A stretch of 63,955 nt of DNA, filler included, from Reclinomonas americana ATCC 50394 (taxonomy: Eukaryota): NCBI GenBank assembly GCA_048213135.1. It is 13 parts of 13 records of this genome, joined end to end, with 100 filler letters (N's around TTAATTAATTAA, not from the genome) between each part and the next. Parts side by side here need not be neighbours in the genome. Positions count along the whole stretch, not along the records: positions 1 to 7,330 come from AFZH01019865.1; positions 7,431 to 15,131 come from AFZH01019867.1; positions 15,232 to 22,824 come from AFZH01019868.1; positions 22,925 to 24,654 come from AFZH01019869.1; positions 24,755 to 30,037 come from AFZH01019870.1; positions 30,138 to 32,471 come from AFZH01019872.1; 7 more parts are not named here. The stretch is one strand, 5' to 3'. Under the pieces are notes generated by a model. That model saw only the letters and a program-made list of their open reading frames with translations, had not been told where the DNA came from and made no database searches. The translations under genes were made by a program, and so were the position numbers. The stretch's first letter is position 1. Each line of letters begins with the position of its first letter. Positions 1 through 48,478 of the stretch are shown piece by piece.

Positions 1-70
1 TAGGAGTTGTTGTTGTTGTTGTTGTTGTTGTTGAGTGAGGGCGTGGAGGAAGAGGACGCCGAGCGGCCAT
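1..70 (-). CDS. Start of exon 1 of a further array gene copy (copy 0), running off the left edge
   Basis: ATG at 70-68 (ATGGCCGCTCGG) sits in the same conserved upstream context as the ATGs at 7804, 15687 and 23245. Confidence 0.7.
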   Translation of the reverse strand, partial: MAARRPLPPRPHSTTTTTTTTTP

Positions 71-1257
71 TTATGTGTGTCTTGGTTGTTGTTCTGCACA
101 CACACGCGCGCTGCGTGATGCAAGAAACGAAGAGAGAGTGAGAAAGCAATACGATTCGTTGATCCGAACAGCGTGATGAAAGGTGACAAGTCGTGATGTG
201 AAGGGAGGAGGAGAAGAAGGAGGAAGAGTGTGGTGAGGAGGGTGAGAAGGGGGAGAAGGGAGTGTCAGAGAACTGGGCAACTTTGGATGCATCGTAAACT
301 GCGATTGTTTGTCTCTTTGTTTTGATCATGGAGAGAACATGGATCAGGGGAAGGCGGTGCTGAGATGATGATGGACAACAACTCCACACTGGGAACAACA
401 GGGCACATGATGAGCTGCATAATGGCAGCATCATCTCCTCGATGGACACCGAGGAAGAGCCTCAGACAGATACAATGAAAAGGTCACGATATCGCATCCA
501 GCTGAAAACCACAAACCTGATCGCCATCAAGACTGCATTCCAACTGCACCCGCTGCAGTGGAGCCGATAGGAGGCGCAGGAGTATCAACAGGACCAACAA
601 AGCAGCATTGCGTGCTGCTTAATCCACATCGATCCACAGGAAATACGAGTCACTTGTACAATCTCGCGACCGACGACTCCTTCCCGCAGCTGCTGGTGGG
701 CCATCATGCACCAGCGATGTACTGCTCTGCCGCTGTCATGAACAGAGAAGAAGCAAGTGTCGTTGATTTCGAATATGGCTGGCCTTGGTCAACAACATTG
801 CCATTCTCATGCAATATCACGACAGCAAATGCATGCCTCCGTGGCGGCTACATGCACAATAGCAGCATTCATTCGCCCACCGAGTCAAATGAAGGCCCCG
901 GTTCCAATCCTTCACTCGCCTTGCTCTTCCTCCTGCGACAACAACAGGCAATCAGCTGCATGAAGTGAAAACTCACAAACAGTCCGTCTCTCATCCCTCA
1001 CAACACAGGACAGCTGTTCAAAATACTGATGCACTGGGTTTCTGCTTCCTTCTTCTTCAACAAGCTTTATCGACCTCACAACACCATGCATGCACTGCTT
1101 GGCCAGTGAACCGTCTTCCCCTCTCTCATCCCACCCGCTGCCGACTCATTCACACTCCCCCGCCACTCACCGACGCAGGCATACTGTCGTTCATCCTAGG
1201 CAGCGTCCGGCTCCTCATATCCAGCCCCTCCTCCTCCACCACCGTGAATTGCTTGTT

Positions 1258-4200
1258 CTACATGTCCTCGTCCTCCTCCTCCTCCTCCTCCTCCTCACCC
1301 TAGTCCTCCTCCTCCTCTTGCTTCACCACCTCCATCTTCACCGGCTTCTCGTCGCCCACCACTACATCACGCATGTCAGTGCTGATGCCGGGACGACATC
1401 CACCAACACAAGGTGCTCCCACATTGTTGCATTTGGGAGCTCTCACCAGCACGCGCAATCTCCGCCTTTGAAAGGCAACCGTCTCGAAGCAGAGTGGCCA
1501 GTAGGCCAGGGCAATTGTGGAGCAGATACGTGGCCTGTTTGACAAAAGGCAGAAGAGTATTTGGAGTGCTTCCCTTCTGAATGTGCTCGGCACATTCCTA
1601 CAATCCGAGAAAAGCAAAGTAAGTCAGCATCGTCAAATCACAACGGAACACACAACCAGGGTCCACATGCCTCAGAGTGCCCACGCTCGTCAATCACAAT
1701 CAGTGGTCTCTCGACAGCATCCACCAGCTCATCTCCTCGAAGATCGCTCTTCTAATGATTCCACATGCACACAATGTAAGCTCGGTCAGTTGCCAGGCAC
1801 ACCACAAGCGAATGTGACACAGAAATAACAAACTGGCACTCACCTCGATGAAGTTACTCACGCTCTCGAGCACACCCTCCACTGACTTGAGCGTCTCGCT
1901 GCGTGCATTCTTGGCACTGCTGGCAAGACTCTTGCTGAATGCAGCCATGACTGCAGATGATGGACAGCCACGTCCCTCTGACGGTATGCCGCAGTCGTCA
2001 CAGGCAAGCTGGAGGAGAACACGCTGATGATGGACGACTGTAGACTCCATCACCACGGGTGCCATGAGACCGAATGCCTTCACCATCATCCTCTTCTTGT
2101 TGCAACCCTGCTCTCAGGTGTGACGGATGGGTGGGAGCGAGTGAGGAGCCGACGATGTCAGCAATGTCGGCGATACAAAGAAAAACGCAACAAGCAATCT
2201 CGCCAGCATCAATTGCTCGTTGATGCTCAACTTCGCAGTATCAATCCTGCGGCACTGTAAAACACAGGCCACGCAGTATTGAGAAGTATATCGCATGACA
2301 TAGAACGCAGCGTCGGGAGTACCTTGTTTCTCTTCGCGTCATCGTCCTCATTGTCGCTGTCGTCATCATCTCCCTTCGCATCCTTCCTCTCCTCCTCTTT
2401 CTTCACCATCTCCATGTCCCTCAGGGCTGTTCACTCATTTCTCAGCACAAGTAAGCAATGAAACCACGGCACAAGCAGCCAAACCTCTTTTACTGCACCA
2501 TTCGGCGGCACGTGCAATCTCCGCCTGCAAAAGGCAGCCGTCCCGAAGCAGAGTGGCCAGCAGGTCTGGACAGCCGTGGAGAGCCTGCATGGCCTGTCTG
2601 ACGTGCGGCAGAAGAGCATTAGGAGTGCCTCCCGTCTGCAACTTTGCTGATTCCTGGCATCCAAGCCACGGCCATGTAAGTCAGCTTTCAGTGACGCGCA
2701 TCAGCGCACACAGTTTCACACGCGCCTCTGAGTAACCACGTTCGTCAACCACAATCAGTGGCTTCTCGACGGCATCCACCAGCTCAGCTCCCCGAATACC
2801 ACTTTTCTGATGGTGACATCCACGTCAAAGTCGAGTCAGTTACCACGCATATAACAATCGAAAGGATACTGAAACAACACACCGACACTCACCTCTATGA
2901 AGTTGCTCACGCTCTCGAGAACACCCTCAGCTGACTTGGGCGTCGTACTGCGTGTATCTCGGGCACTGCTGGCAAGGCTCTCTCCAAATGCAGCCATGAC
3001 TGCGGATGATGGGCTGCCACGTCCCTCTGACGGTATTCCGCAATCGTCACAGGCAAGTTGGAGGAGAACGCGCTGATGATGCATGACTGTGGATCGCATC
3101 ACCACGGGTGCCATGAGACCGAGTGCCTTCACCATCATCCTCTTCTTGTTACCGCCCTGCTCTCGGGTGTAACAGATGGAGTGAGTGAGGAGCCGACGAT
3201 GACAGCAATGTCGGCGATACAAAGAACACGTAACAAGCAATCTCGCCAGCATCAATTGCTCGTTGATGCTCAACTTCGCAGGATCAATCTTGCGGCGCTG
3301 TGAGGCGCAAGCCATACAGAGTCAGCACTGTCTCGCATCTAACGGAAACGAGCGATGGGCGTACCTTGCCATCGTCCTCATCCTCCTGCTCTTCCTCCCT
3401 CTTCTCCTCTTTCTTCACCATCATCATCTCCCTCAGTGCTGTTCAGTCAATGTTGAGCACATGCGCACACTATGCAGCAATGCTAGTCACGCAGCCCAAC
3501 CTCGTTCACCGCACCACTCGGTGGCACGTGTGATCTCTGTCTTCGAAAGACAGCCTTCTCGAAGCAGAGTGGCCAGCAGGCCAGGACAGTTGTGGAGAGC
3601 TTGCATTGCCAGCGCGATGAATGGTTGATGGAGTGTCTGCCGGTTGTGCCGCACCCTTGGCAAGCGTGATGACTCCTGACAACCAAATTCCAGAACACAA
3701 AGCATGAGAATATGGCAGCCAATATGCACAACGCACACTGAGTGCAAGGAAGCCGCACCTCCGAATAACCACGCTCATCCACCACAACCAGGGGTCTCTC
3801 AATGGCATCCGCCAGAGCAGCGCCACGCAGTTCACTCTTCTGCATAATGCCATATACGTTAGCGATGATATTGATTCAGTCGCGCGAAATGGACGCTGCT
3901 CACCTCGATAAAGTCGCTCATCATCTGCAGCACTCTCTCAACTGACTTGGGCGTCTTGTCGCGTACCTGTTGGCAGAGCTTGGCCAAGACTCTTGCCGAA
4001 AGAGCTCACGACTGCCGCCGAAAGGCAGCCTGCTTTCGATGAAGGGATGCCACACTCCTTGCTTGCCAAGTCAAAAAGAATGCGCTGATGATGACAGATT
4101 GTGGATCCCATCACAATCGGTGCCATGACGCCGAACGCCATCACCAATATCTTCCTCTTATTGCAGCACTGCTCTCCCATGAATCAGATGAGTGGTGCAA

Positions 4201-7200
4201 TGTGCACTCAATCAGCAAGATGACTACCGAAGGAGGTCATGAATGCAATCAAACGCAACGACTAGCCTCGCCAGCATCAGTTGCTCGTCCTTGCTCATTG
4301 TGAGAGAATCACTCTCTTGTCGCTGTGAATGCGCACCATGAGATGATGCCATTGTGTGTACCCGCCACACCATCTATGGTCATACCTTGCTCCTGTCACC
4401 TTCATCGTCCTCATCTTCTTCCCCGTCGACCCTCGGTTCGTCCTCCTGTTCCTCCTCCTTTTTCTCATTCACCTCCTCTTTCTTCAGCACCTTGGCCTCC
4501 AGCAGAGCTGCATGTCGTTCGTCAGCCGAGACCCAACGCACACAGCAAAACGCATCCGATGCCTCCAAACCTCTCTCACTGCACCACTCAACGGCCCGTG
4601 CGATCTCCTCGTCGGAGAGACAGCCGTCTCGAAGCAGCGACGCTTGCAAGCCAGGACACTCACGCAGGGCCTGCGCGGCTTGGGCGATGAGAGGCAGGAG
4701 AAGGCCGTTGCCCTTCAGCTTCTTCTTCATCATCTTCCATGACTCCTGCAGCAAGATCGACATCGTGAAAAAAGAGGGCGAGTGGGCACAAACCGGGAAA
4801 TGTAGAAAGAGCACACAATGGAAAGTTTGCACACCTCCGAATGACCCCGTTCATCAACCACAATCAGTGGTCTCTCAATGGCATCCGCCAGAGCACCACC
4901 GCGCAGTTCACTCTTCTGCAAGAGTTACAAATGTATTAATGCTGGCTCACTTTCCAGTCGCACCAGAGATGGAGAGCACAGACCGATGCTCACCTCGATG
5001 AACTTGCTCATGCTCTGGAGCACTCCCTCAACTGATTTGGGCGTGTTGGTGCGTGACTTGTTGCCGACACGGCCAAGACTCTTGCCGAATGAATCCGTGA
5101 CTGCGGGCGACGGACTGCCAGCTCCCGATGAAGGAATACCACACTCATTGCAGGCGAGTTCAACGAGAACGCGCTGATGATGCCAGACTGTGTTTCGTTT
5201 CAGAATCGGTGCCATGAAACCGAATGCCGTCACCAGTAGCTTCTTATTGTTGCACTGCTGTTCGCACACATGCACGCACGCATCAAATGTCATTACGTGA
5301 CAGGCAAGCACATGGCAGAGTGCAACTAATCTGCCTTGCTGGGGTATTGCACACGCAACAAGCAGTCTGTCTAGCACGACTCGCTCGTCCATGCTCAAAT
5401 CCGCATTGAATGCATAGCGACCGCACTTGACGCGCTGCAAATACGCACTCCATGAGACATCGACAATCAACACAACTGCCTGCCAAGCCATACACAGGCG
5501 GCGACAACGCAGTACCTTGCTCGTCTTTGTTTCTTCACCATCATCACTTCCTGCATCCTCCTGTGAACGCAACGCATCAGCGCGTGGCCGAGTCCACGAA
5601 GACATACCCAGTCTCCGTCCTTCATGAACTGTTGAAGCTCACCTTAATGTCATCTTCTTCATGCTTGATGTCATCGTCGTCTTTCTTCACCACCATTTTC
5701 ACATCGCCAGATTCTGCGAGGTGCTGGTCAATAACCAAAGCAAGCACCAGTAACAGTGGCATGAGAGGGATTGCTGACCTCGCAAATGGCACCACGTGAC
5801 GGCGCGTGTAATCTCGGTCTCAGAGAGGTGGTTGTCTCGAAGCAGAAAACTCAGAAGACCATTACACTCGCGCAATGCATCCATGGCCTCCGTGACAAAT
5901 GGCTGAAGATGGTCTTTCCTGGTCTTGGTTGCTGGAGGCATTCTCTCCCATGATTCCTATCTCGAACAAGCCGAGAGAATAAACGTCAGTTGGCATGATC
6001 ACAATCAACACAAGATCGAGTAACATAAGCGCACCTCCGTATATCCGCGATCATCCACAACTATCAGTGGTCTCTCAACAGCATCCACCAGAGCCGCGCC
6101 ACTGAGCTGGCTCATCTGCAGATTGCAATCATCTGCTTGTTGGTTCAATATGCCACGGCCGTCACAACGCACACGCATGCTCACCTGGATGTACTTGCTC
6201 ACGCTCTGGAGCACACCCTTCACGGACCTGGGCGTTCGGTTGCGTGAACGTTGGGCAGTCTGACCAAGCTTCTTGCCAAATGCACACTGGACTGCCGACG
6301 ACATGCGACCCGGTGCCGACATTGGAATTCTGCAGTCGTCGCAGGCAAGCTCAAAGATAACACTCTGATGGTGGATGACGGTGGACGGCTGAACAATTGA
6401 TGCCATCAGGCCAAACGCCTTCACCAGGATCCTCTTCCGATTACATCGCTGCGAGTGAGTGATACAAGAAGAATGGTGAGTGCGACGAGGAGAAAGAGGA
6501 GCGAGGCGGGTTGCAACGATGTCAGAGAGAGCATGCACACGCAACAAGCAGCTTGTTCAGCAGCAGCTTCTCGTCTGCGCTCAATTCCACTGGTTCTTTC
6601 GCAGCTCGAGTCCTGACACGCTGTGAATCCACAACATGCGTCATTGACCCAAATGCACATCGATGAACAAGCACAACAATGTCAGCCACAGAATCCACAC
6701 CTTCCTCTTCTTTGGCGGCGCAAGCTCGTCATCGCTGGATGCATCCACCTGCAAAGAATGAAGAACAACATCAGGTGCCAACTGCCAAGCACGATCGAGA
6801 GGTAAGTGAGGCGCATGTCTCATCGGAGTTCACCTCCAGCGAACGCTTGCGGGCTGACGTCTCAACTGAGTCACGTGCAGGCAAGTCCTCGCTGTGATCC
6901 ACCAGAGACGAGTCGACTCGCTGCCTCCTCGCATGTTGCTGTGCAATCATGCCATGAAAGAGAAAGAGAGAGAGTACAGTGAGAGACATGCTCATCTTGG
7001 GATGACGCACAATCACTATACCTCGACAATGCCTTCCATCGCTGTGCGTTCCATGTGCTCCTGGTGGGCAGCTGTGTGGCATGCATCGCCCAGATGAGAC
7101 ATCACGTGACACGAGAACACCAAGGACTGCAGGAGGGAGAGAGAGAGACGCACCCTGCTCAGTGTGATTCTCCGAGTCACTTTGGGCAGCGGCAATGGCG

Positions 7201-7804
7201 GCTGTGCTCTCGTCGGTGTGCTTCTTCTTCTTCTTGTCCTTCAACAAGCCAGCTGGTTCTGCAACACGGAATGAAACAACGACAATCCATGATGAGGAAG
7301 AACAAGAAGAAGAAGAAGAATAAGAAGAAGNNNNNNNNNNNNNNNNNNNNNNNNNNNNNNNNNNNNNNNNNNNNTTAATTAATTAANNNNNNNNNNNNNN
7401 NNNNNNNNNNNNNNNNNNNNNNNNNNNNNNCACACACACACACACACACCTTTCTTGGCAGTGACACTGGTGGTGGTGACAGACGTGGAAGAAGAAGAGG
7501 AGGAAGAAGAAGAGGAGGCAGGTACTCGTCGCCTCGCCATCGCATGCGCAGGCACACCAAGATGAGCAGACGACCCCAATGCGCTCTTCTTCTTCTCATT
7601 ATCATCATCGTTGATGTTGCTGTTGATGGAGAGAGAGGAGGAATGCATCATCATCGTCGTCACATGCTGCTGCTTGCTGTCGATGAGCATCATGTCTGCT
7701 TTCTCGTCGTCGCACAGAGACGAGGAAGACATTGGCAGTGAAGGGGTTGTTGTTGTTGCTGTTGAGTGAGGGCGTGTTGGTGGAGGAGGTGGTCGAGAAG
7801 CCAT
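1258..7804 (-). pseudogene. Array gene copy A: five-domain repeat protein of unknown family, carrying a +1 frameshift and an early TAG
   Basis: Exon 1 (MASRPPPP..TAKK) splices in phase 1 across the gap to EPAGLLKDKKKK. Domains: R1 ~5640-6620, R2 ~4385-5435, R3 ~3363-4325, R4 ~2321-3300, R5 ~1258-2255. The R3 core exon is 265 nt instead of 264 (extra C near 3984); TAG at 1300-1302 is 14 codons before the conserved stop. Confidence 0.65.
7331..7430. other. Artificial 100-nt scaffold spacer (N44-TTAATTAATTAA-N44). Identical spacers start at 15132, 22825, 24655, 30038, 32472, 37283, 43076, 45881, 48553, 60363 and 61630
   Basis: Identical length and a six-frame-stop linker in all 12 gaps; most are flanked by microsatellite or low-complexity sequence. 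Confidence 0.98.
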
Positions 7805-8939
7805 TTGTGTGTGTGTCTCTGTTGTTGTTTCGCACACACGCGCGCGCTGCGTGATTCAAGAAACCAATAGATAAGAGAACAATGAAGTTCGTTGATCCGA
7901 ACAGCAAGATGAAATGGTGACAAGTCGTGAAGGGAAGGAAGAGGAGGAGGAGGGAGGGAGGGTGAGAAGGGGGAGAGGAGTGTCAGAGAACTGGGCAACT
8001 TTGGATGCATCGTAAACTGCGATTGTTCTCCATGACCAGCATATGCATGTCTGTTTTGATCTCTCTCTCACGGAGAGAACATGGATCAGGGAAGCTGCAG
8101 CTGGGATGCTAATGGACTACAACTCCACAGAGAGTACAACAGGGCACATGAGCAGCATCAACCTGGATGGACACCGAGGAAGAGCCGCAGCAGATACAAT
8201 GAAAAGGGTCAATATCATCCAGCTGAACACCACAACCCTGATCGTCATCGAGACTGCATGCGAACCGCACCCGCTGCAGTGGAGCTGGTAGGAGGTGCAG
8301 GGGTATCAACAGGACAAACAATGCAGCATTGCCTGCTGCTCAATCCACATCGATCCACTGGAAATACGAGTCACTTGCACAATCCCGCGATGAGTCATAC
8401 TCCTTCCCCCGCAGCTGGTGGTGGCCATCGTGCACCAGCGGTCTGCTGCTCTGCCGCTGCCATGAACAGAGAAGAAGCAGGTGTCGCTGATTACGAATAA
8501 GGCCGGCCTTGGTCAACAAGACAGCCATTCTCATGCAAAATCACGACAGCAAATGCATGCCTCCGTGGCGGCTACATGCACAACAGCATTCATTCGCCTT
8601 GCAAGTTGCACCATGGCCTCGGTTCCAATCCTTCACTCATCTTGCTCTTGCTCCTGCGATAACAACAGCAGTCAGCTGCATGCAGAGAAAAACACACATG
8701 CAGAGTCCATGGCTCACAACACAAGGCACTTGCTCACAAATATCACTCTTGGTGCACTGGATTTCTGCCATCTTCTTCCCCGACAAGCTGCCTATGCACG
8801 TGCTGCTTGCCCAGCGAAATCTCTTCCCCTCTCCCATCCCTCCTGCTGCCGCTCACTCCCACTCTCTCGCCACGCACCTGTGCATCATCCATCCACAGCG
8901 GATATTCAGTTCCTCCTTCGTCACCTTGAATTGCTTGTT

Positions 8940-11900
8940 CTACATGTCCTCGTCTTCCTCCTCCTCCTCCTCCTCCTCCTCCTCCTCATCCTCCTCCTCC
9001 TCCTCATTCTCCTCCTCCTTTTTCCTCCTCCTCCTCTTTCTTCACCACCTCCATCTTCACCGCCTTCTCGTCGCCCACCACTGCATTCATGCTCGTCAGT
9101 GCTGCTGCCGGGACGACATGCAACACCACAAGGTGCTCCCACATTGTTGCATTTGGGAGCACTCACCGGCACGCGCAATCTCCGCTTTCGAAAGACAACC
9201 GTCTTGAAGCAGAGTGGCCAGAAGTCCAGGGCAATTGTGGAGCAGATGCATGGCCTGTGATACAAAAGGCAGAAGAGTATTTGGAGTGCTGCTCTTTCGC
9301 AACTTGTCTGATTTCTGCCACTCGAGAATACGACAGCAAGGTCAGTCATCACATCCTCGGAGCACAACAGCGATCCCAATAGTCGTCGTCCACATGCCTC
9401 AGAGTAACCGCGCTCGTCAATCACAATCAGTGGTCTCTCAACAGCACCCACCAGTGCAGCGTCGCGAAGTCCGCTCTTCTATTGATTCCACATGCACACG
9501 ACGCAAGGCAGGTCAGTTGCCAGGCACACCACAGGCGGATGTGCAACATAAAACATCACACAGGCACTCACCTCGATGAAGCTGCTCACCATTTCGAGCA
9601 CACCCTCAACTGACTTGAGCGTCTCGCTGCGTGCATTCTTGGCACTGCAGGCAAGACTCTTGCCAAATGCAGCCATGACTGCGGATGATGGACAGCCCGG
9701 TCCCCTCGATGGTATTCCGCAGTCGTCACAGGCCAGCTGGAGGAGAACTCGCTGATAATGGCGGACAGTGGATTCCATCACCACGGGTGCCATGAGACCG
9801 AATGCCTTCACCAGAACCCTCTTTTTGTTACCGCCCTGCTCTCAGGTGTGACGGACAACCAGAGTGGGAAACCAGGGTGGGAGTGAGTGAGGAGTTTATG
9901 ACAGCAATGCCGGCAATACGAAGAACACGCAACAACCAATCTCGCCAGCATCAATTGCTCGTTGATGCTCAACTTCGCAGGATCAATCTTGCGACGCTGT
10001 GAAACACAAGCCACGCAGTTTTCAGAAGACAAATATCATGCATCACAAAGAGCGCAGCGTCGGGCGTACCTTCTTTCTATTCGCGTCATCGTCCACATTG
10101 TCGCTGTCGTCATCATCTTCCTGCTCACCCTCCCTCTCCTCCTCTTTCTCCATCATCTCCATCTCCCTCACAGCTGTCGCTCATCTCTCAGCACACGTAA
10201 GCATCAAAGCCGCGAGCACAAGCAGCCAAACCTCTTTTACTGCACCATTCGGCGGCACGTGCAATCTCCGCCTGCGAAAGGCAGCCGTCCCGAAGCAGAG
10301 TGGCCAGCAGGTCTGGACAGCCGTGGAGAGCCTGTATGGCCTGCATGACGTGTGGCAAAAGAGCATTAGAAGTGGCTCCCTTCTGCGACTTTGCAGCTGA
10401 TTCCTGTCATCCGAGCCAGCAATGTAAGTCAGCTTTCAATGACGCGCATCAGCACACACAGTTTCACACGCACCTCAGAGTAACCACGTTCGTCAATCAC
10501 AATCAGTGGCTTCTCGACGGCATCCACCAGCTCAGCTCCCCGAAGACCACTCTTCTGATGGTGACATCCACGTCGAAGTCGAGTAACGTACCACACACAA
10601 AACAATCGGAAGGATACTGAAACAACACACCGACACACTCACCTCTATGAAATTGCTGACACTCTTGAGCACACCCTCAACTGACTTGGGCGTCTCACCA
10701 CGTGCTCTATTGGCACTATCGGCAAGACTCTTGCTGAATGCAGCCATGACTGCGGCCGAAGGGCAGCCCCGTCCCTCCAACGGTATTCCGCATTCGTCAC
10801 AGGCAAGTTGGAGGAGAACACGCTGATGATGGAGGACTGTGGGTCTGAGCACCACGGTTGCCATCAGGCCGAATGCCTTCACCAGCATCCTCTTCTTGTT
10901 GCGACCCTGCTCCGAGGCAAGGTGAGCAGATGGGAGTAACAGCATTGTCGGTGACATGCAGAGAGATAACAGCAACACGCAACAAGCAGTTTCGCCAACA
11001 TCAGTTGCTCGTTGATGCTCAGCTTCCCATGACCACTCTTGCGGCGCTGTGAAGCGCAAACCACACAGAATTAGGACACGCACCTGCCTCGCATCTAACG
11101 GAAACGAGCGACGGGCGTACCTTGCCATCGTCCTCGTCCTCCTGCTCTTCCTCCATCTTCTCCTCTTTCTTCACCATCTCCATCTCTCTCAGAGCTGTTC
11201 AGTCGTTGGTGAGCATATGCACACACTGTGCAGCTATGCAAGTCACGCAGCCAACCTTGTTCACCACGCCACTCGGCGGCGCGTGCAATCTCTGACTTCG
11301 AAAGACAACCATCTCGAAGCAGAGTGGACAGCAGGCCAGGGCAGTTGTGGAGAGCTTGCACTGCCAGCGTGACGAATGGCTGATGGAGTGTCTGCGTGCT
11401 GCGCTGCATCGTCGGCAACTTTGACGATTCCTGACAACCAAATTCCAGAACACGGAGTATGAGAATATGGCAGCCCATATGAACAACGCACACTGAGTGC
11501 GGGGCAGCCGCACCTCAGAAATGCCACGTTCATCAACCACAACCAGGGGTCTCTCAATGGCATTCGCCAGAGCAGCGCCACGCAGTTCACTCTTCTGCAT
11601 AATGCCACACATACATTAGCGATGATATTGATTCAGTCGCGCGAAATGAATGCAGCTCACCTCGATAAAGTCGCTCATCATCTGCAGCACTCCCTCAACA
11701 GACCTGGGCGTCTTGTCGCGTACCTGTTGGCAGAGCTTGGCAAGGCTCTTGCCGAGTGAGCTCACAACTGCCGACGAAAGACAGCCTGCTTTCGATGAAG
11801 GGATGCCACACTCCTTGCTTGTCAAGTCAAAAAGAATGCGCTGATGATGGCGGACGGTGGATCCCATAACCATCGGAGCCATGACGCCAAATGTCATCAC

Positions 11901-14900
11901 CAATATCTTCCTCTTATTGCAGCACTGCTCTCCCATGAATCATATGGGTGGCGCGATGAACACTCAAGTAGCCAGACAACTACCGAAGAAGGACAAGACT
12001 GCATGCACACGCAACAAGTAGCCTCGCCAGCATCAGCTGCTCATCCTTGCTAATTGTGTGAGAATCACTCTCTTGTCGCTGTGAATGCGCTCCATGAGAC
12101 GATGCCTGTATGCACGCACCCCATCATCCATGGTCATACCTTGCTCCTGTCACTCTCACCCATATCGTCCTTCCCGCTCTCCTCCCCGTCGACCCTCGAA
12201 TCATCCTCTTCCTCCTCCTCCTCCTCCTTCCTCTCTTCTTTCTTCAGCACCTTGGCCTCCAGAAGAGCTGCATCTTGCTTGTCAGACCTGACAGCAGGAC
12301 ACGCCCGATGCCATCAAACCTCTTTCGCTGCACCACTCGACTGCCCGTACGATCTCCGCCTCGGAGAGACAGCCATTTCGAATCAGCGACGCTTGCAAGC
12401 CAGGGCACTCACGCACGACCAGCGCAGCTTGGGCGATGAGAGGCAGGAGAAGGTCGTTGCCCTTCAGCTTCATCTTCATCATATTCCATGACTCCTGCAG
12501 CACGTTCGACACCGTGAAAGAAGCGAGTGAGTGGACACAACCGGGAAATGTAGAAAGCGCACGAAGGAAAGTTTGCACACCTCCGAATGACCCCGTTCAT
12601 CAACCACAATCAGTGGCCTCACAATGGCATCCGCCAGGGCAGCGCCGCGCAGTTCACTCTTCTGCAAGAGTTACATGTATTAATGCTGGTTCACTTTGCA
12701 GTCATGTCTGAAATGAATTGCACAGACAGCTGCTCACCTTGATGAAGTCGCTCATGCTCTGGAGCACTCCATCAACTGACTTGGGCATGTCCCTGCGTGC
12801 AGACTTGACGGCATGGCCAAGAGTCTTTCCGAATGAATCCGTGACTGCGGGCGACGGGCTGCCAGCTCCCGATGAAGGAATACCACACTCATTGCAGGCG
12901 AGTTCAACGAGAACGCGCCGATGATGCAAAACAGTGGATGGCTTCAGAACTGGTGCCATAATGCCGAATGCCGTCACCAGTAGCTTCTTATTGTTGCACC
13001 GCTGTTCGCACACATGCACGCACGCACCAGGTGTTATGACAGTCAAGCACATGGCAAGGTGTAACTAATCTGCCTTGCTGGGGTATTGCAGCACATAAAC
13101 ACGCAACAAGCAGTCTGTGCAGCATCATTCGCTCGTCCGTGCTCAACTCTGCATTGAATGCATAGCGACCGCACTTGACGCGCTGCAAATACGCACCACA
13201 TGACATCGACTTATCAACACAACTGCCTCCCAAGCCATACACGGGCGACGACAACGCCGTACCTTACTCGTCTTTGATTCTTCACCATCATCACTTCCTG
13301 CATCCTCCTGTCAAAGCAACGCATCAACGCGTGGCCGAGTCCAAGAAGACACAGCCAGTCTTCGTCATTCATGAACTGCTGATGCTCACCTTGGTGTCAA
13401 CTTCTTCACGCTTGATGTCATCGTCGTTTTTCTTCACCACCATTTTCACATCGCCAGATTCTGCGTAATGCTGGTCAACACCAGTGCATGCAACAACAAC
13501 AGTCGCACGAAATCACAGACCTTTTGATTGGCACCACGTGACGGCGCGTGCAATCTCGGCCTCACAGAGGTGGTTGTCTCGAAGCAGTGCAGTCATGAGA
13601 CCATCGCACTCGCGCAGCGCATCCATGAACTGCTTGACAAACGGCTGAAGATGGTCTTTCCTGGTCTTGGTTGCTGTTGGCATTCTCTCCCATGATTCCT
13701 ATCTCGAACAAGCCGAGATAATAAACGTCAGTTGGCATGATCACAACCAACACAAGATCGAGTAACATAAGCGCACCTCCGTATATCCGCGATCATCCAC
13801 CACAATCAGTGATCTCACAACAGCATCCGCCAGAGCCGCGCCACTGAGCTGGCTCATCTGCAGATTGCAATCATCTGCTTGTTGGTTCAATATGCCACAA
13901 TCGCCGCAGGGACACATGCTTGCTCACCTCGATATAGTTGCTCACGCTCCGAAGCACGCCCTCAACTGATTTGGGCGTTCTGTTGCGTGAATCACTTGCA
14001 GTTTGACCAAGCTTCTTGCCGAATGCACACTGGACTGCAGACGACGTACGATCCGGTGCTGACAATTGAATCCCGCAATCGTCACAAGCCAGCTCAAAGA
14101 TAACACTCTGATGGTGGATGACGGTGGACGGCTGAACAATTGATGCCATCAGGCCAAACGCCTTCACCAGGATCCTCTTCCGATTACATCGCTGCGAGTG
14201 AGTGATACAAGAAGAATGGTGAGTGCGACGACGAGAAAGAGGAGGCTGAAGGGGTTACAATGATGTCGGAGAGAGCATGCACACGCAACAAGCAGCTTGT
14301 TCAGCAACAGCTCCTCGTCAGCGCTCAACTCCACTGGTTCTTTCGCAGCTCGAGTCTTGCCGAGCTGTGAATTCACAACACGCAGGATTGACACAAGAGA
14401 ACCCACATGCACATCAATGAAGAAACACAACAATGTCAGTGACAAAGAATCCATACCATCTTCTTCTTCTTTGGCGGTGCAAGCTCGTCGTCGCTGGATG
14501 AATCCACCTGCAGAGAATGGAGAGAACATTAGGTGTCAACTGCCATGCATGAGCGAGAAGCAAAGTGAGACGCGCGCCTCATCGGAGCTCACCTCCAGAG
14601 AACGCTTGCGGGATGATGTCTCATCTGAGCCACGTGCAGGCAAGTTCTCACCGTGATCAACCAGGGACGAATCTACTCGCCGCCTCCTCGCATGTTGCTG
14701 TGCAATCATGCCATGAAAGAGAGAGCGAGAGAGTTCAGTTAGAGACATGCTCATCCTGGGATGACACACACAATCACTATACCTCGACGATGCCTTCCAT
14801 CGCTGTGTGTTCCATGTGCTCCTGGTGGGCAGCTGCGTGGCATGTACCACCCAGGTGAGACACTACGCGACACGAGAACACCAATGACTGCAGGGGAGAG

Positions 14901-15100
14901 AGAGAGAGAGAGACGCACCCTGCTCAGTGCGATTCTCCGCGTCACTTCGGGCAGCGGCAACGGCGGCTGTGCTCTCGTTGGTCTTCCTGTCCTTCAACAA
15001 GCCAGCTGGTTCTGCAACACGGAATGGAACACACGACAATCCATGATGAGAAAGAAGAAGAAGAAGAAGAAGAAGAAGAAGAAGAAGAAGAAGAAGAAGA

Positions 15101-15131
<31 letters not shown>

Positions 15132-15271
15132 NNNNNNNNNNNNNNNNNNNNNNNNNNNNNNNNNNNNNNNNNNNNTTAATTAATTAANNNNNNNNNNNNN
15201 NNNNNNNNNNNNNNNNNNNNNNNNNNNNNNNGTCGAACAAGGCGACAAGACACGAAGGAGGAGAGATAAAC

Positions 15272-15326
<55 letters not shown>

Positions 15327-15687
15327 ACACACCTTTCTTGGCAGTGACACTGGTGGTGGTGACAGACGTGGAAAAGGAAGAAGAAGAAGAGGAAGAGGCA
15401 GGCACTCGTCGCCTCGCCATCGCAGGCACGCCACGATGAGCAGACGACCCCGATGCGCTCTTCTTCTTCTTCTCATCATCATCGTCGTTGATGTTGATGG
15501 AGAGAGAGGAGGAGGAATGCATCATCATCATCATTGGCGTCGTCACATGCTGCTTGCTGTCGATGAGCATCATGTCTGCTTTCTCGTCTTCGTCGCACGG
15601 AGGCGAGGCCGACATTGGCAGCGAAAGAGTTGTTGTTGTTGAGCGAGAGCGCGGTGGTGGAGGAGGAGGAGGAGGTCGAGCGGCCAT
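8940..15687 (-). CDS. Array gene copy B: five-domain repeat protein of unknown family (roughly 1,200-1,300 aa after splicing)
   Basis: Same exon series as copy A. Each domain is exon a (..LS.DE.LML.RL), exon b (CNKKR..AFGLMAP..HHQRVL.LAC..CGIP..TPKSVEGVL..FIE, 88 aa), exon c (KSELRGAAL.DA.ERPL.V.DERG.SE) and exon d (LLP.V.QA..AL..CPGL...LLRDGCLS..EI.RA..WC), then an acidic linker. Ends EDEDM*. No disruption seen in the exons I checked. Confidence 0.8.
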
Positions 15688-16839
15688 TTGTGTGTGTCTT
15701 GGTTGTTGTTGTTCCACACACGCGCGCGCTGCGTGATTCAAGAAACCAAGAGATAAGAGAACAATGAAGATTCGTTGATCCGAACAGCAAGATGAAATGG
15801 TGACAAGTCGTGATGGAAGGTGAGGAGGAGGAGTGTGGTGGGGAGAAGGGGGAGAGGAGTGTCAGAGAACGGGGCAACCTTGGGTGCATCGTCAACTGCG
15901 ATTGTTCTCCACGACCAGCAATGCATATCTCCTTGCAATTGGTTTGATCATGGAGAGAGCATGGATCAGGGGAAGCTGCAGCTGAGGTGATGATGGACAA
16001 CAACTCCACACTGAGTACAACAGGGCAGATGAGCAGCATCCCCTCGATGGACACTGAGGAAGAGCCACGGACAGATACAATGAAAAGGTCACGATATCGC
16101 ATCCAGCTGAAAACCACAAACCTGATCGCCATCAAGACTGCATTCCAACTGCACCCGCTGCAGTGGAGCCGATAGGAGGCGCAGGAGTATCAACAGGACC
16201 AACAAAGCAGCATTGCGTGCTGCTTAATCCACATCGATCCACAGGAAATACGAGTCACTTGCACAATCTCGCGATGAGTCTGTTGGTTGCCATCGTGCAC
16301 CAGCGATGTACTGCTCTGCCGTTGCCATTAACACGGAAGAAGCAAGTGTCGCGGCCTTCGAATATGGCTGGCCTTGGTCAACAAGACAGCCATTCTCGTG
16401 CAAAATCACGACAGCAAATGCATGCCTCCGTGGCGGCTACACGTACAGCAACATTCATTCGCCCACCAAGTCAAATGTTGGCCCTGGTTCCACTCTTCAT
16501 TCACTCAACTTGTTCTTCCTCCTGCGGCAACAACAGGCAATCAGCTGCATGCAGAGAAAAACACACATGCAGAGTCCATGGCTCACAACACAAGGCACTT
16601 GCTCACAAATATCACTCTTAGTGCACTGGGGTACTGCCTTCTTCTTCCCCGACAAGCTGCCAATGCATGTGCTGCCTGCCCAATGAATTCTCTTCCGCTC
16701 TCTCATTCCTCCTGCTGCCACTCACTCCCACTCTCTCGCCACGCACCGGTGTCGGTACGTCATCGTTCATCCAGGCTTAAGGCAGCGTCTTGCTCTTCAC
16801 ATCCAGCCTCTCCTCCTCCACTACCTTGAATTGGTTGCT

Positions 16840-23245
<6,406 letters not shown>

Positions 23246-24416
23246 TTGTGTGTGTCTCTGTTCTTGTCTCGCACACACGCGCGTGCTGCGTGATGCAAGC
23301 AACGAAGAGAGAGAATGAAGATTCGTTGATCCGAACAGCAAAGATGAAAGGTGACAAGTCGTGATGTGGGAAGAGGAGGAGGATGGAGTGTGGTGGGGAG
23401 AAGGGGAACAGAGAGGAGAGAAGATGGTGTCGAACTGGGCATCCTTGGGTGCATCGTCAATCTGCCATTGTTCCCCATGACCAGCAATGCATGCCTCTTT
23501 GTTTTGGATCTCTCTCAGACGGAGAGAACATGGATCAGGGAAGCTGGTGCCGAGATGATGATGGACTCCACAGAAAGTACAACAGGGCAGATGAGCAGCA
23601 TACCCTCGATGGACACCGAGGAAGAGCCACGGACAGAGAAAATGAGAAAGGTCACGATATTGCGATCCAGCTGAACACCACAACCCTGATCGCCATCGAG
23701 ACTGCATGCCGCTGAGATGGTGTCGAGTGAAGGTGCAGGAGTATCAACAGGACCAACAAAGCAGCATTGCCTGCTGCTCAATCCACATCGATCCACAGGA
23801 AATACGAGTCACTTGCACAATCTCGCTATCGACGACTCCCTCACCCGCAGCTGCTGGTGGGCCACCATGCACCAGCGATGTGCTGCTCTGCCGCTGTCAT
23901 GAACACAGAAGAAGCAAGTGTCGTTGATTACGAATATGGCTGGCCTTGGTCAACAAGACAGCCATTCTCATGCAAATCACGACAGCAAATGCATGCCTCC
24001 GTGGCGGCTACATGCACTACAGCAGCACTCATTCGCCCACCAAGTCCAATGAAGGCCCCGGTTCCAATCCTTCACTCATCTTGCTCTTCCTCCTGCGACA
24101 ACAACAGGCAATCAGCTGCAAGAAGAGAAAACTCACATGCAGAGTCTATCCCTCACAACACAGGACAGCTGTAAAAAATACTGATGCACTGGGTTTCTGC
24201 TTCTTTCTTCTTCGACAGGCTCCATCGACCTCACAACGCCATGCATGCGCTGCTTACCCAGTGAACTGTCTTTCCCTCTCCCATCCCTCCTGCTGCCGCT
24301 CACTCCCACTCTCTCGCCACTCACCGACGCAGGCATATATCATCGTCCATCCACGGCAGCGTCTAGCTCTTCACATCCAGCCCCTCCTCCTCCACCACCA
24401 CCGTGAATTGCTTGCC

Positions 24417-27400
24417 CTACATGTATTCCTCCTCGTCCTCCTCGTCCTCCTCCTCCTCCTCCTCCTCCCCCTCCTCCTCCTCCTCCTCTTCCTCCTCCTC
24501 CTCCTCCTCCTCCTCCTCCTCCTCTTCCTCCTCCTTTTTCTTCACCACCTCCATCTTCACCGGCTTCTCGTCGCCCACCACTGCATTATGCTCGTTAGAA
24601 ATGACGGTGGCACGACATGCAAAAACAGCAGATGCTCCCACATTGTTGCATTTGNNNNNNNNNNNNNNNNNNNNNNNNNNNNNNNNNNNNNNNNNNNNTT
24701 AATTAATTAANNNNNNNNNNNNNNNNNNNNNNNNNNNNNNNNNNNNNNNNNNNNAATGCCTTCACCAGAACCCTCTTCTTGTTGCAACCCTGCTCTCAGG
24801 TGTGACGCATGGGTGGGAGCGAGTGAGTAGCTTATGACAGCAATGCCGGCAATACGAAGAACACGCAACAACCAATCTCGCAAGCATCAATTGCTCGTTG
24901 ATGCTCAACTTCGCAGGATCAATCTTGCGGCGCTGTGAAACACAGGCCACGCAGTATTGAGACGTATATCATGCATCACAAAGAGCGCAGCGTCGGGCGT
25001 ACCTTGTTTCTCTTCGCGTCATCGTCCACATTCTCGCTGTCGTCATCATGTTCCTGCTCAACCTCCCTCTCCTCCTCTTTCTCCATCATCTCCATCTCCC
25101 TGACAACTGGCCACTTGCTTGTCAGCACAAGTAAGCAACAAAGCCACGAGCACAAGCAACCAAACCTCTTTCACTGCACCATTCGGCGGCACGTGCAATC
25201 TCCGCCTGCGAAAGGCAGCCGTCCCGAAGCAGAGTGGCCAGCAGGTCTGGACAGCCGTGGAGAGCTTGTATGGCCTGTCTGACGTGTGGCAGAAGAGCAC
25301 TAGAAGTGGCTCCCTTCTGCCACTTTGCTGCCGATTCCTGTCATCCGAGCCTCAGCAATGTGAGCCAGCTTTCAATGACGCGCATTAGCAAACACAATCT
25401 CACACGCGCCTCAGAGTAGCCACGTTCGCCAATCACAATCAGCGGTCTCTCGACGGCATCCACCAACTCAGCTCCCCGAAGACCACTCTTCTGATGGCGA
25501 CATCCACGTCGAAGTCGAGTCAGGTACCACGAACATAGCAATCGGAAGGATACTGAAACAACACACCGACACACTCACCTCTATGAAATTGTTGAAACTC
25601 TTGAGCACACCCTCCACCGACTTGGGCGTCTCACCACGTGCTCTATTGGCACTATCGGCAAGACTCTTAACAAATGCAGACAAGACTGCGGCCGAAGGGC
25701 AGCCCCGTCCCTCCAACGATATTCCGCATTCGTCACAGGCAAGTTGGAGGAGAACGCGCTGATGATGGAGGACTGTGGATCTCAGCACCACGGGTGCCAT
25801 CAAACCGAATGCCTTCACCAGCATCCTCTTCTTGTTGCAACCCTGCTCCGAGGCGCAGTGAGCAGACGGGAGTAACAGCATTGTCGGTGACATGCAGAGA
25901 TAACAGCAACACGCAACAAGTAACTTCGCCAACATCAGTTGCTCGGTGACGCTCAGCTTCCCAGGACCGCTCTTGCGGCGCTGTGAAGCGCAAACCACAC
26001 AAAGTTAGGACACGCATCTGTCTCGCATCTAACGGAAACGAGCGACGGGCGTACCTTGCCATCGTCCTCGTCCTCCTGCTCTTCCTCCCTCTTCTCCTCT
26101 TTCTTCACCATCTCCATCTCCCTCAGTGCTGTTCAATCGTTGTTGAGCATATGCACACACTGTACAGCTATGCAAGTCACGCAGCCAAACCTCGTTCACC
26201 GCACCACTGGACAGCACGTGTGATCTCTGTCTTTGAAAAACAGCCGTCTCGAAGCAGAGTGTACAGCAGGCCAGGGCAGTTGTGGAGAGCCTCTATAGCT
26301 TGTGTAAAAAACGGCAGAAGAGGACTCTGCCTTCTGTGCTGCATCCCCGGCAACTTTGACGATTCCTGACAACCAAATTCCAGAACAGAAAGCATGAGAA
26401 TATGGCAGCCAATATGTACAACGCACACTGAGTGCGGGGCAGCCAACCTCCGAATAGCCACGTTCATCCACCACAACCAGGGGTCTGTCAATGGCATCCG
26501 CCAGAGCAGCGCCACGCAGTTCACTCTTCTGCATAATGCCACATACATTAGCGATGGTATTGATTCAGTCGCGCGAAATGGACGCTGCTCACCTCGATAA
26601 AGTCGCCCATCATGTGCAGCACTCTCCCAACTGACTTGGGCGTCTTATCGCGTACCTGTTGGACGACACTGCCAAAATTCTTGCCGAGTGAACTCACGAC
26701 TACCGCCGAAAGGCAGCCTGCTTTCGATGAAGGGATGCCACACTCCTTGCTTGCCAAGTCAAAAAGAATGCGCTGGTGATGCCGGACGGTGGATGGCAGC
26801 ACAATTGGCGCCATGATGCCAAACGCCATCACCAGTACCTTCCTCTTATTGCAGCACTGCTCTCGCATGAATCACATGGGTGGTGCGGTGAAAACTCAAT
26901 CAGCCAGACAACTACCAAAGAAGGACAAGACTGCAATCAAACGCAACAAGCAGCCTCGCCAACATCAGTTGCTCGTCCTTGCTCATCGTTGTTGGAGCAG
27001 TCCCTTGTCGCTGTGAATGCGCTCCATGAGACGATGCCAGTATGCACTCACCCCATCATCCAAGGTCATACCTTGCTCCTGTCACCTTCGCCGGAGTCGT
27101 CCTCATCTTCCTCCCCGTCGACCCTCGAATCATCCTCTTCCTCCTCCTCCTCCTCCTCCTTTTTCATCATTTCTTCCTTCAGCACCTTCACATCCAGCAG
27201 AGCTGCATCTCGTTCGTCAGTTCTGGCAAGTTGCACAGGAGAACGTATTCGACGCCGTCAAACCTCTGTTGCTGCACCACTCGACGGCCCGTGCGATCTC
27301 CTCCTCGGAGAGACAGCCGTCTCGAATCAGCAACGCTTGCAAGCCAGGACACTCACGCAGGGCCTGCGCGGCTTGGACGACGAGCGGCAGGAGACGGTTG

Positions 27401-29943
27401 CTGCCATTCGGCTTCTTCTTCATCATATTCCATGACTCCTGAAGCACGATCGACATCGACGCGGGTGAGTGGACACAAACCGGGAAATGCAGAAAGCACA
27501 CAAAGGAAAGTTTGCACACCTCCGAATGGCCCCGTTCGTCAACCACAATCAGTGGTCTCTCAATGGTATCTGTCAGAGCAGCGCCGCGCAGTTCGCTCTT
27601 CTGCAAGAGTTACATATGTATTAATGCTGGTTCACTTTGCAGTCACGTGTGAAATAGACAGCACAGGCAGATGCTCACCTTGATGAAATCGCTCATGCTC
27701 CGGAGAATTCCCTCAACTGATTTGGATGTCTTGGTGCGCGCTTGCTGGACGACATGGACAAGAGTCTTGGCGACTAAATCCATGACTGCGGGCGACGGAC
27801 TGCCACCTCCCGATGAAGGAACACCACACGCATTGCAGGCGAGTTCAACGAGAACGCGCTGATGATGAAAGACTGTGTTTCGTTTCAGAATCGGTGCCAT
27901 GATACCGAATGCCATCACCAGTAGCTTCTTCTTGTTGCACCGCTGTTCGCACACATCCACGCACGCACCAGGTGTTATGACAGGCAAGCACATGGCAGAG
28001 TGCAACTAATCTGCCTTGCTGGGGTATTGCACACGCAACAAGAAGTCTGTCCAGCACGGTTCGCTCGTCCATGCTCAAATCCGCATTGAATACATAGCGA
28101 CTGCACTTGACGCGCTGCAAATACGCACCCCATGAGACATCGACAATTAACACAACTGCCACCCAAGCCGTACACAAGTGGCGACAACGTCGTACCTTGC
28201 TCGGCTTTGATTCTTCACCATCATCACTTCCTGCATCCTCCTGTGAACGCAACGCATCAGCGCGTGGCCGAATCCACGAAGACACGCCCAGTTTCTGTCA
28301 TTCATGAGCTGTTGATGCTCACCTTGCTGTCAACTTCTTCATGCTTGATGCCATCGTCGTCTTTCTTCACCACCATTCTCACATCGCCAGATTCTGCGAG
28401 GTGCTGGTCAACACCGATGCAAGCAACAACAACAGTCTTATGAAATCGCAGACCTTTTGATTGGCACCAAGCGACGGCGCGTACAATCTCGGCCTCAGAG
28501 AGGTGGTTGCGTCGAAGCAGAGAAGTCAGAAGACCATCACACTCGCGCAGCGCATCCATTGCCTGCTTGACAAACGGCAGGAGATGGTCTTTCTGACTCT
28601 TGTTCTGAGGCGCCAATCTCTTCCACGATTCCTATCTCGAACAAGCCGAGAGAATAAACGTCAGTCGGCATGATCACAACCAACATAAGATCGAGTAACA
28701 TAAACGCACCTCCGTATATCCGTGCTCATCCACCACAATAAGTGGTCTCTCAACGGCATCCACCAGAGCCGCGCCACTGAGCTGGCTCACCTGCATTGTG
28801 CAATCATCTGCACGTTGGTTCATCTGTCACTATCGTTCACTGATACGTATGCATGTTCACCTCGATGCAATTGCTCACGCTCTGGAGCACACCCTTCACG
28901 GACCTGGGCGTTCTGTTGCGTGAATCACTTGCAGCTTGACCAAGCTTCTTGCCGAATGCGCACTTGACTGCAGACGACGAGCAACTCAGCTCCGACGATG
29001 GAATTCTGCAGTCGTCGCAGGCAACGTCGAAGATAGCACTCTGATGGTGGATGACGGTGGATTTCTGAACAACGGGTGCCATCAACCCGAATGCCTTCAC
29101 CAGCACCCTCTTCCGATTGCATCGCTGTGAGTGATACAAGAAGAATTGTGAGTGCGACGAGGAGAAGGAGGAGACTGAAGGGGTTGCAACGATGTCAGAG
29201 AGAGCATGCACACGCAACAAGCAGCTTGTTCAGCAGCAGCTCCTCGTCTGCGCTCAACTCCACTGGGGTTTTCGCAGCTCGAGTCTTGTCACGCTGTGAA
29301 TTCACACCATGCGTCATTGACACACAAGAGCCCAAATGCAGATCGACGAACAAGTACAACAATGTCAGCGACAGAGAATTCACACCTTCTTCTTCTTCTT
29401 CTTTGGCGGCGCAAGCTCGTCATCACTGGATGCATCCACCTGCGGAGAATGAACAGAAACATCAGGTGTCAACTGCCAAGCACGAGCAGGAGCAAGTGTG
29501 ATGCATGCCTCATCGGAGTTCACCTCCAGAGAACGTTTGCGGGCTGACGTCTCAATTGAGTCACGTGCAGGCAAGTCCTCGCTGTGATCCACGAGAGACG
29601 AGTCGACTCGCCGCCTCCTCGCGTGTTGCTGTGCAATCATGCCCAGAGAGAGAGAGAGAGAGAGTTCAGTTAGAGACATGCTCATAATGGGATGACACAC
29701 AATCACTGTACCTCGACGATGCCTTCCATTGCTGTGTATTCCATGTGCTCCTGGTGAGCAGCTGGGTGCATGCATCGCCCAGGTGAGAACTACGCGACAC
29801 GAGAACACCAATGACTGCAGGAGAGAGAGAGAGAGACGCACCCTGCTCAGTGCGGTTCTCCGCGTCACTTCGGGCAGCGGCAATAGCGGCCGTGCTCTCG
29901 TCAGCGTGCTTCTTCTTGTGGCCCTTCATGAAGTCAGCTGGTT
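24417..29943 (-). CDS. Array gene copy D, 5'-partial (exon 1 not visible; most of domain R5 lost in gap 24655-24754)
   Basis: Exon 2 (EPADFMKGHKKKH) starts at 29943; domains R1-R4 are complete; ends EEEYM* at 24417. Confidence 0.78.
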
Positions 29944-30265
29944 CTGCAACACGGAATGGAACACACGACAATCCATAATGAGAAAGAAGAAGAAGAAGAA
30001 GAAGAAGAAGACAAGAGAAGAAGAAGAACAAGAAGAANNNNNNNNNNNNNNNNNNNNNNNNNNNNNNNNNNNNNNNNNNNNTTAATTAATTAANNNNNNN
30101 NNNNNNNNNNNNNNNNNNNNNNNNNNNNNNNNNNNNNTCTCTCTCTGTCTCTGTCTCACTCGTTCTCTCTCAGTCTCTCCCTCTCCCTCTCTCTCCCTCT
30201 CTCTCCCTTCCCCTTCACCGCTCTCCATCTCCCTTCCCCTTCACCGCTCTCTCACCCATTCACAG

Positions 30266-43800: not shown

Positions 43801-43973
43801 GCCCCTTTCCACCTCTCCCCACCTGCATGATAGAGCTCCGCAAACTGCGAGTCAGAGAGCGTCGGCAATCCACTAATGTGCCGCCTCAACGCATCCTGTG
43901 CCTCACAAAACGCACTGGCGCCCTCCTCCTCGCTCACATCCGCCACCAACAGCACCTCAGCAGCCTCTGTCAT
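37896..43973 (-). CDS. ZIP4: Meiotic ZMM TPR protein ZIP4/SPO22/TEX11-like
   Basis: WFRDAAWNLLLR resembles TEX11 WFRKTAWNLA; LCHNAAYQLYR|LSQFGSAEKW resembles the TEX11 C-terminal WN.G....SKYASAEKW; N-terminal ELYHAG|VRIFRRC; helical-repeat character throughout. The 5' exons lie across gap 43076-43175. Confidence 0.78.
40097..40525. repeat. Intronic minisatellite, ~40-bp unit, about 11 copies
   Basis: Unit approximately acaatctctcactcacgcacatgcaacaaaacaagaagaa, repeated without unique spacers inside a ZIP4 intron. Confidence 0.9.
42258..42735. repeat. Degenerate intronic tandem repeats (15-bp x4, then a ~60-75-bp unit x5-6)
   Basis: gctcttctccagcat-like units at ~42259-42320; ctctcttctcat..tac.tgatgg..cgt.ccctcac..caac.aaca.gaaagcacaga units at ~42355-42735. 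Confidence 0.7.
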
Positions 43974-48372: not shown

Positions 48373-48403
<31 letters not shown>

Positions 48404-48448: not shown

Positions 48449-48478
48449 GGAGGGGTTTGCAGTGATTGAGATAAAGAA

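Follow-up and report, generated by a model that had tools for sequence, protein, structure and literature searches.

A nested repeat of four predicted intron-rich paralogous genes encoding five-module proteins in Reclinomonas americana

Introduction

Vertebrate KRAB zinc-finger genes form tandem clusters of paralogues and encode nuclear proteins built of serial modules that show elevated amino-acid change, and proteins of the UBF, HMGB and nucleolin types alternate basic DNA- or RNA-binding modules with acidic stretches. We describe here a gene family of Reclinomonas americana ATCC 50394 (NCBI GenBank assembly GCA_048213135.1) that resembles both. It lies in a stretch of 63,955 nucleotides, referred to as the window, which consists of 13 parts joined end to end; adjoining parts need not be neighbours in the genome. 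The best explanation of the first 30 kb, which we hold with moderate confidence, is a cluster of four paralogous intron-rich genes; less firmly, we propose that their products are nuclear proteins with modules that would bind nucleic acid or chromatin.

The likeness to the KRAB zinc-finger clusters is an analogy only and comprises the cluster of paralogues, the serial modules, the presumed nuclear location and the elevated amino-acid change. The module itself differs, being ~195 aa long, encoded by four exons and mostly helical, and zf-C2H2, KRAB and SET gave no Pfam match at E ≤ 1 on any exon or read-through piece. With the UBF, HMGB and nucleolin types the family shares repeated basic modules, acidic linkers, a poly-acidic tail and a basic N-terminus resembling a nuclear localisation signal (NLS), but its modules are larger, and the searches detected in them neither an HMG-box nor an RRM nor any other known module.

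Results and Discussion

Four gene units in a nested direct repeat

A nested direct repeat occupies positions 1-30037 and, by self-BLAST, comprises four gene units of ~7.8 kb, all on the minus strand. U2 and U3 are 85.4% identical over 7,566 alignment columns, U1 and U2 83.8% over 7,500, and U1 and U3 83.4% over 7,257; U4 is 85.6-87.0% identical to each of the others over 5.1-5.3 kb. Within each unit are sub-repeats of ~1.06 kb with ~67-72% identity, and there are five modules per unit. The units and the linkers that separate them are as follows.

1-7330, minus strand: unit U1
7331-7430, no strand: linker between U1 and U2 (44 N, a 12-mer and 44 N, with microsatellite flanks)
7431-15131, minus strand: unit U2
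7431-9003, minus strand: 3' flank of U2 with the intergenic spacer, about as conserved between units as introns are, with open reading frames (ORFs) lacking a Pfam family
15132-15231, no strand: linker between U2 and U3, from gap inspection
15232-22824, minus strand: unit U3
22825-22924, no strand: linker between U3 and U4, from gap inspection
22925-24654 and 24755-30037, minus strand: unit U4
24655-24754, no strand: linker within module 5 of U4, concealing ~0.55 kb and not a deletion
30038-30137, no strand: linker upstream of U4, before which the array stops

A preliminary description of this DNA had proposed at least five gene copies arranged head to tail with about 20 domain copies. There are four gene copies in the window. 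The domain count was accurate: a tblastn search of the whole window with an 88-aa exon found 19 copies, all on the minus strand and distributed 5+5+5+4 across U1 to U4, with none to the right of 30 kb, and a twentieth (module 5 of U4) is present but split by the gap at 24655-24754. On the upstream side of U4 the array comes to an end; to the left it may extend past base 1. As for the head-to-tail arrangement, the nested repeat on one strand does fill positions 1-30037, but tandem order is not shown by continuous sequence. All 12 gaps in the window (the first at 7331-7430, the last at 61630-61729) are exactly 100 bp long and consist of 44 N, an identical 12-base spacer with stops in six frames and another 44 N; nearly all are bordered by microsatellites. 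Gap sizes are thus placeholders, and the order of units and contigs is set only by the scaffolding. Because the four unit junctions (those before U2, U3 and U4 and the one upstream of U4) are all such linkers, each unit lying on its own contig or contigs, the head-to-tail order is itself a product of scaffolding.

The units could accordingly be true paralogues without all being arranged head to tail at a single locus, the scaffolder having chained similar contigs that end in microsatellites; every unit is a separate contig, and no sequence crosses the unsized junctions. We consider this improbable. The contigs are 13-17% diverged, hence not collapsed copies, they share one orientation, and the units begin and end at the same point, as they would in a tandem array broken at spacer microsatellites, while the right-hand flank runs into unique housekeeping genes.

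The non-coding flanks of the ~7.8-kb units are common to multiple copies, which would also suit copies of a large mobile element, or genes for a protein encoded by one. This is highly improbable, since Pfam searches of all frames of the array gave no transposase, integrase, reverse transcriptase or other element domain, self-BLAST found no terminal repeats around the units beyond the tandem repeat, and the gene has 28 introns of spliceosomal type.

Gene models and exon structure

Gene models were anchored on a DNA alignment of the 19 complete modules, followed by a check of splice columns and then by addition of linker, N-terminal and last exons; they are built from the sequence itself. The models are listed here.

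1300-7054, minus strand: gene U1, 29-exon model with five modules and one 1-nt frameshift in the main exon of module 3
9004-14815, minus strand: gene U2, complete 29-exon ORF of 1,199 aa with 28 introns of 52-106 nt
16840-22647, minus strand: gene U3, complete 29-exon ORF of 1,213 aa with 28 introns of 59-111 nt
24417-29744, minus strand: gene U4, open through 23 exons (956 aa) to the gap that interrupts module 5
24417-24580, minus strand: last exon of the U4 model, with poly-Glu tail and stop

Each module has four core exons, Eb (63 or 75 nt), the main exon Ec (264 nt), Ed (81 nt) and the last module exon Ee (169-178 nt). The three introns that separate them are at identical positions in all 19 copies, as had been noted from the outset, and are in phase 0; the intron between modules is in phase 1. 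Introns across the models range from 52 to 111 nt in length, and the median is close to 80. Splice acceptors (AG) and donors (GT) fall in the same alignment columns in 19 of 19 modules, with the exception of a GC donor after Ed in five modules. The resulting GC-AG intron is found in modules 4 and 5 of U1, module 5 of U2, module 5 of U3 and module 4 of U4 (for example at 9396-9397), and the other introns of the models are GT-AG. The frames are open only when spliced at these conserved GT/GC-AG sites, which argues indirectly for the spliced, multi-module protein-coding genes originally proposed. In the list that follows D1 to D5 are the modules in order, each given from Eb to Ee as placed by the module alignment.

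5779-6620, minus strand: U1 D1
4571-5434, minus strand: U1 D2
3501-4322, minus strand: U1 D3, with the main exon at 3904-4168 of 265 nt, not 264, so that the frame is shifted
2485-3297, minus strand: U1 D4
1447-2254, minus strand: U1 D5
13521-14364, minus strand: U2 D1
12320-13182, minus strand: U2 D2
11256-12078, minus strand: U2 D3
10232-11046, minus strand: U2 D4, the reference module, with Eb at 10984-11046, Ec at 10643-10906, Ed at 10474-10554 and Ee at 10232-10403
9167-9996, minus strand: U2 D5
21377-22212, minus strand: U3 D1
20173-21033, minus strand: U3 D2
19104-19925, minus strand: U3 D3
18090-18893, minus strand: U3 D4
17050-17856, minus strand: U3 D5
28454-29293, minus strand: U4 D1
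27264-28114, minus strand: U4 D2, in which the intron between Ed and Ee is in frame and stop-free and served for a read-through fold
26191-27010, minus strand: U4 D3
25166-25980, minus strand: U4 D4
24755-24932, minus strand: part of U4 D5 before the gap, with Eb at 24870-24932 and Ec from 24789, cut at 24755

The interrupted module of U4 starts normally, with a linker exon at 25003-25106 followed by Eb and the beginning of Ec. The exons outside the modules are illustrated by those of U2.

14457-14815, minus strand: three N-terminal exons (14783-14815, 14593-14697 and 14457-14507), with a start codon conserved in all four units
12140-12267, minus strand: acidic linker exon between D2 and D3, given as an example, with net charge -10 and isoelectric point (pI) 4.3
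9004-9080, minus strand: last exon of the gene, with acidic tail and stop; the poly-Glu run is longer in U3 and U4

Duplication history

Modules at the same position in different genes are 67-91% identical in the identity matrix and those at different positions 41-59%, except that D4 and D5 are 69-78% identical to each other. A maximum-likelihood tree was built from the 19 complete modules without dropping any row; each position forms one clade in it, with ultrafast bootstrap (UFboot) and Shimodaira-Hasegawa approximate likelihood ratio test (SH-aLRT) values of 100/100, 100/99, 100/100, 83/82 and 98/97. The position-specific clades therefore place the five-module gene before the amplification of the gene. 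Both points, the greater similarity of same-position modules (D4 and D5 apart) and the order of events, bear out the preliminary description. D4 and D5 are sisters (UFboot/SH-aLRT 100/99), and on this tree the pair is the youngest internal duplication. Modules were duplicated within one gene first, and the entire gene, introns and spacer included, was then copied at least three times. Provided the gene models hold, nature offers here a clean case of two-level duplication, with all 28 intron positions kept and clear selection on the frames.

Selection and divergence

When the U2 coding sequence was substituted at random at rates of 4, 6 and 7.8%, simulations produced on average 5.5, 8.2 and 10.2 stop codons, with 0.4%, 0% and 0% of 500 replicates free of stops, and the real models of U2, U3 and U4 have none in ~3,370 codons. 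Introns differ between units by 29-36 insertion or deletion (indel) events per pair, 25-31 of them not multiples of three, as against 5-7 events per pair in exons, nearly all multiples of three. The exceptions in exons are the 1-nt frameshift of U1, events of 16 and 32 nt and one of 10 nt, and the last three probably sit in the last exon with its poly-Glu run, in which the position of the stop varies from gene to gene. Because there are no stops and the exon indels, unlike those in introns, preserve the frame, the reading frames are under selection, which keeps them open.

The array could instead be non-functional, either decaying pseudogenes or a satellite. The frameshift in U1 fits such a state, as does the similar divergence of exons and introns (raw mismatch 0.116-0.126 and 0.122-0.156, respectively, which is nearly equal). 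Decay of this kind is nonetheless scarcely credible in view of the absence of stops where neutrality predicts 5-10 per gene, the retention of frame by exon indels but not by intron indels, and a ratio of non-synonymous to synonymous substitution rates (dN/dS) of 0.14-0.3 in the module cores.

Over 27 same-position pairs the mean dN is 0.115, the mean dS 0.249 and the mean dN/dS 0.50 (range 0.25-1.16). The ratio of the corresponding proportions of differences (pN/pS) is 0.17-0.3 in the hydrophobic cores of the main exon and falls to 0.14 across a conserved strand-like motif in Ed. There is one hot spot, shown here in the reference module.

10691-10726, minus strand: hot spot at main-exon codons 61-72, with pN/pS 0.94-1.24

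The profile is, as judged from these comparisons, that of a folded domain with one variable, surface-like patch. The family had been called fast-evolving, and the mean dN/dS, the 12-codon hot spot and the similar divergence of exons and introns lend this moderate support.

Protein architecture and predicted fold

Each modelled protein has ~1,200 residues and comprises five ~195-aa modules, acidic linkers, a basic N-terminus and a poly-Glu tail. The modules have a net charge of +2 to +9 and pI 8.2-9.5, and the linkers and tail a net charge of -2 to -11, with linker pI 4.0-4.7. All four units share a conserved N-terminal stretch of 60 residues, with a run of arginines, a basic triplet, and a proline that precedes 4-6 lysines or arginines. 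This N-terminus is hydrophilic (Kyte-Doolittle -1.1) and has no segment resembling a signal peptide. Measured over 19 residues, hydrophobicity peaks in the first helix of the main exon, present once per module, with a Kyte-Doolittle value of 1.6-1.7.

An AlphaFold2 (AF2) model of the main exon from an 18-row alignment has four helices, with a mean predicted local distance difference test score (pLDDT) of 72.3 and a predicted template modelling score (pTM) of 0.48. For module 2 of U4, a read-through of Ed, the in-frame stop-free intron and Ee was folded, giving a three-helix unit in Ee with pLDDT blocks of 79-87; the Ed part is of low confidence because there were no alignment rows there.

Two structural candidates were dropped. 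One was a zinc site: across copies just one His and two Cys are invariant, and a single continuous predicted helix holds the His together with a nearby Cys pair. The other was an internal sub-repeat within the module, for which hhalign gave a probability of 0.5% between the main-exon and last-module-exon profiles.

Searches for relatives

Pfam gave no match at E ≤ 1 to the four main exons searched. Among the 19 last module exons it returned HTH_24 (PF13412) in four, the best at 13.4 bits (cut-off 21.9) and E 0.059, and RTX below cut-off in two; nine read-through or N-terminal pieces gave just two sub-threshold rows at chance level, and other-frame and plus-strand ORFs in or adjoining the array yielded no family. 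Queried with exon pieces, 1.84 billion representative proteins including protist transcriptome sets contain no detectable relative of the module. A profile of 18 main exons did have a sole match there, P0001 (E 3.4e-8, over six stretches), but we judged this spurious, because P0001 is a bacterial-type repeat protein without the module motifs and summed weak repeats inflate its score. In a word-indexed collection of 5.8 billion proteins the main exon had 69 candidates among the longer proteins, none of which scored, and the last-module-exon profile had 7,996 that were scored, none at E ≤ 0.01. Pattern searches found 394 matches in metagenome contigs and 13 in viral contigs, with 0 confirmed in either. 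PDB sequence profiles gave best E values of 0.15 and 0.12 and nothing below 0.1, the ESM Atlas gave no usable match, and Foldseek against the PDB gave 0 matches at E ≤ 0.001, the best being E 2.9. No winged helix-turn-helix (HTH) structure stands out in the fold search; chains of histone-fold complexes are among the weak structural rows and are a lead only. A full-text literature search with three short peptide motifs of the module found no mention of them. That the consensus had been said to belong to no recognisable family thus agrees with every exon-wise search run, and no match to a characterised domain or transposon protein emerged from the Pfam, profile and Foldseek searches with exon-sized pieces.

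As a control, an exon of IFT121 from the same window (59969-60361) found 367 proteins at E ≤ 1e-10, with a top identity of 58-61% and matches scattered among dinoflagellates, green algae, stramenopiles and others. This low top identity indicates that the organism's proteome and those of close relatives are absent from the collections, so the blank searches cannot show the module to be lineage-specific.

The strongest rival to our explanation places the module in a known fold or superfamily, such as an HTH, a histone-fold-like binder or the DNA-binding domain of a domesticated transposase, hidden by the testing of single exons. It is compatible with the gene models and differs on novelty only. 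The most conserved motif of the last module exon aligns to positions 8-26 of the 48 in the HTH_24 profile in four of 19 copies, and AF2 predicts a three-helix unit in that exon; the pattern of Eb and early Ec looks like a psq/CENP-B-type HTH with a longer turn, which we take as a lead only. On the other hand the HTH_24 matches stay below the gathering score, the segment expected to supply the recognition helix of a winged HTH merges into the acidic linker, no exon or read-through piece scores at the cut-off of any Pfam family, and the PDB profiles (best E 0.12-0.15) and Foldseek (best E 2.9) gave no significant match. Membership of a known superfamily is therefore possible, but we think it on the whole unlikely.

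Possible function

On present evidence we regard the family as real and neatly organised, an orphan gene family as judged from its sequence. We suggest tentatively, at a lower confidence than for the explanation as a whole, that the products may act in the nucleus and attach to nucleic acid or chromatin through their basic helical modules. In that case acidic linkers and tail would modulate module binding as internal competitors, or bind basic proteins, and the paralogues would be diverging in specificity. The comparisons that the preliminary description drew with KRAB-ZNF or PRDM9 arrays, immune-receptor arrays and driver/suppressor clusters gain no support from these analyses.

Several observations weigh against this picture. 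The gene models are predictions from sequence, and the main exon of module 3 in U1 carries the sole frame defect of the whole array (265 instead of 264 nt), which could be an assembly error or early pseudogenisation. The near equality of exon and intron divergence indicates that constraint on the protein is weak outside the core. Folds and searches for relatives used unspliced exon-sized pieces of at most 88 real residues out of the ~195 of the module. The functional proposal is drawn from composition, charge pattern and a similarity below threshold (HTH_24, 13.4 against 21.9 bits), and the basic runs of the N-terminus are a putative NLS with the look of the classical basic type. Finally, the sole PDB sequence match is to sarcospan, a membrane protein (E 0.15), and the hydrophobic helix of each module raises the question of membrane association.

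These last two points, and the occurrence of the paralogues as a tandem, fast-evolving group, would suit a family of variant proteins that are membrane-anchored or secreted, for example surface antigens or a receptor-like array. We see very little likelihood of this, because the N-terminus is hydrophilic and lacks a signal-like segment, the hydrophobic stretch holds Lys and Ser/Thr and is placed by AF2 in a helical bundle, and strongly acidic linkers with basic runs are atypical of ectodomains.

Returning to nuclear binding modules as the preferred explanation, a more specific and speculative proposal, to which we give little weight, is that the module represents a hitherto undescribed domain for binding nucleic acid or chromatin and the paralogues are rapidly diversifying readers of sequence or chromatin state through the patch at codons 61-72. 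If so, diversification focused on the patch is what would be expected in tracking targets that change fast, for instance selfish DNA or satellite repeats. If the gene models hold, the module could stand for a domain family and a class of nuclear factor that are both new, in a eukaryotic lineage not yet sampled. Tandem families that are orphan and fast-evolving are nothing unusual among under-sampled protists, and no mechanism is yet tied to this one; its biological weight is modest.

The rest of the window

To the right of the array, a run of housekeeping genes occupies the minus strand from 44157 to 62191, all of them split by short introns.

44157-44807, minus strand: PTPLA-type dehydratase, intron-split
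47150-48604, minus strand: RNase H2 subunit B, intron-split
about 49.1-52.6 kb, minus strand: TTI1, intron-split
about 56.3-60.4 kb, minus strand: IFT121/WDR35, intron-split, including the control exon
61730-62191, minus strand: Aa_trans amino-acid transporter, intron-split

The presence of IFT121 indicates that the organism is flagellated. Neither Rfam, searched with gathering scores as thresholds, nor ARAGORN returned anything for the window. On the plus strand at 33885-35601, Penicil_amidase of Pfam matches at E 3e-10 and 3.3e-15, covering profile positions 272-347 and 390-471, and the pair of ORFs in overlapping frames here is predicted to be a split penicillin-amidase-like gene in a pyrimidine-rich low-complexity region. 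That tract, one of two long strand-asymmetric ones, extends from 32572 to 37282, is pyrimidine-rich on the plus strand and has an AT skew of about -0.25; a second low-complexity tract, from about 42000 to 45880, is purine-rich with an AT skew up to +0.385 and a GC skew up to +0.27. In or beside these tracts are tandem repeats with periods of 88-98 bp (34600-34984), 138 bp (42353-42682) and 40/79 bp (40097-40524).

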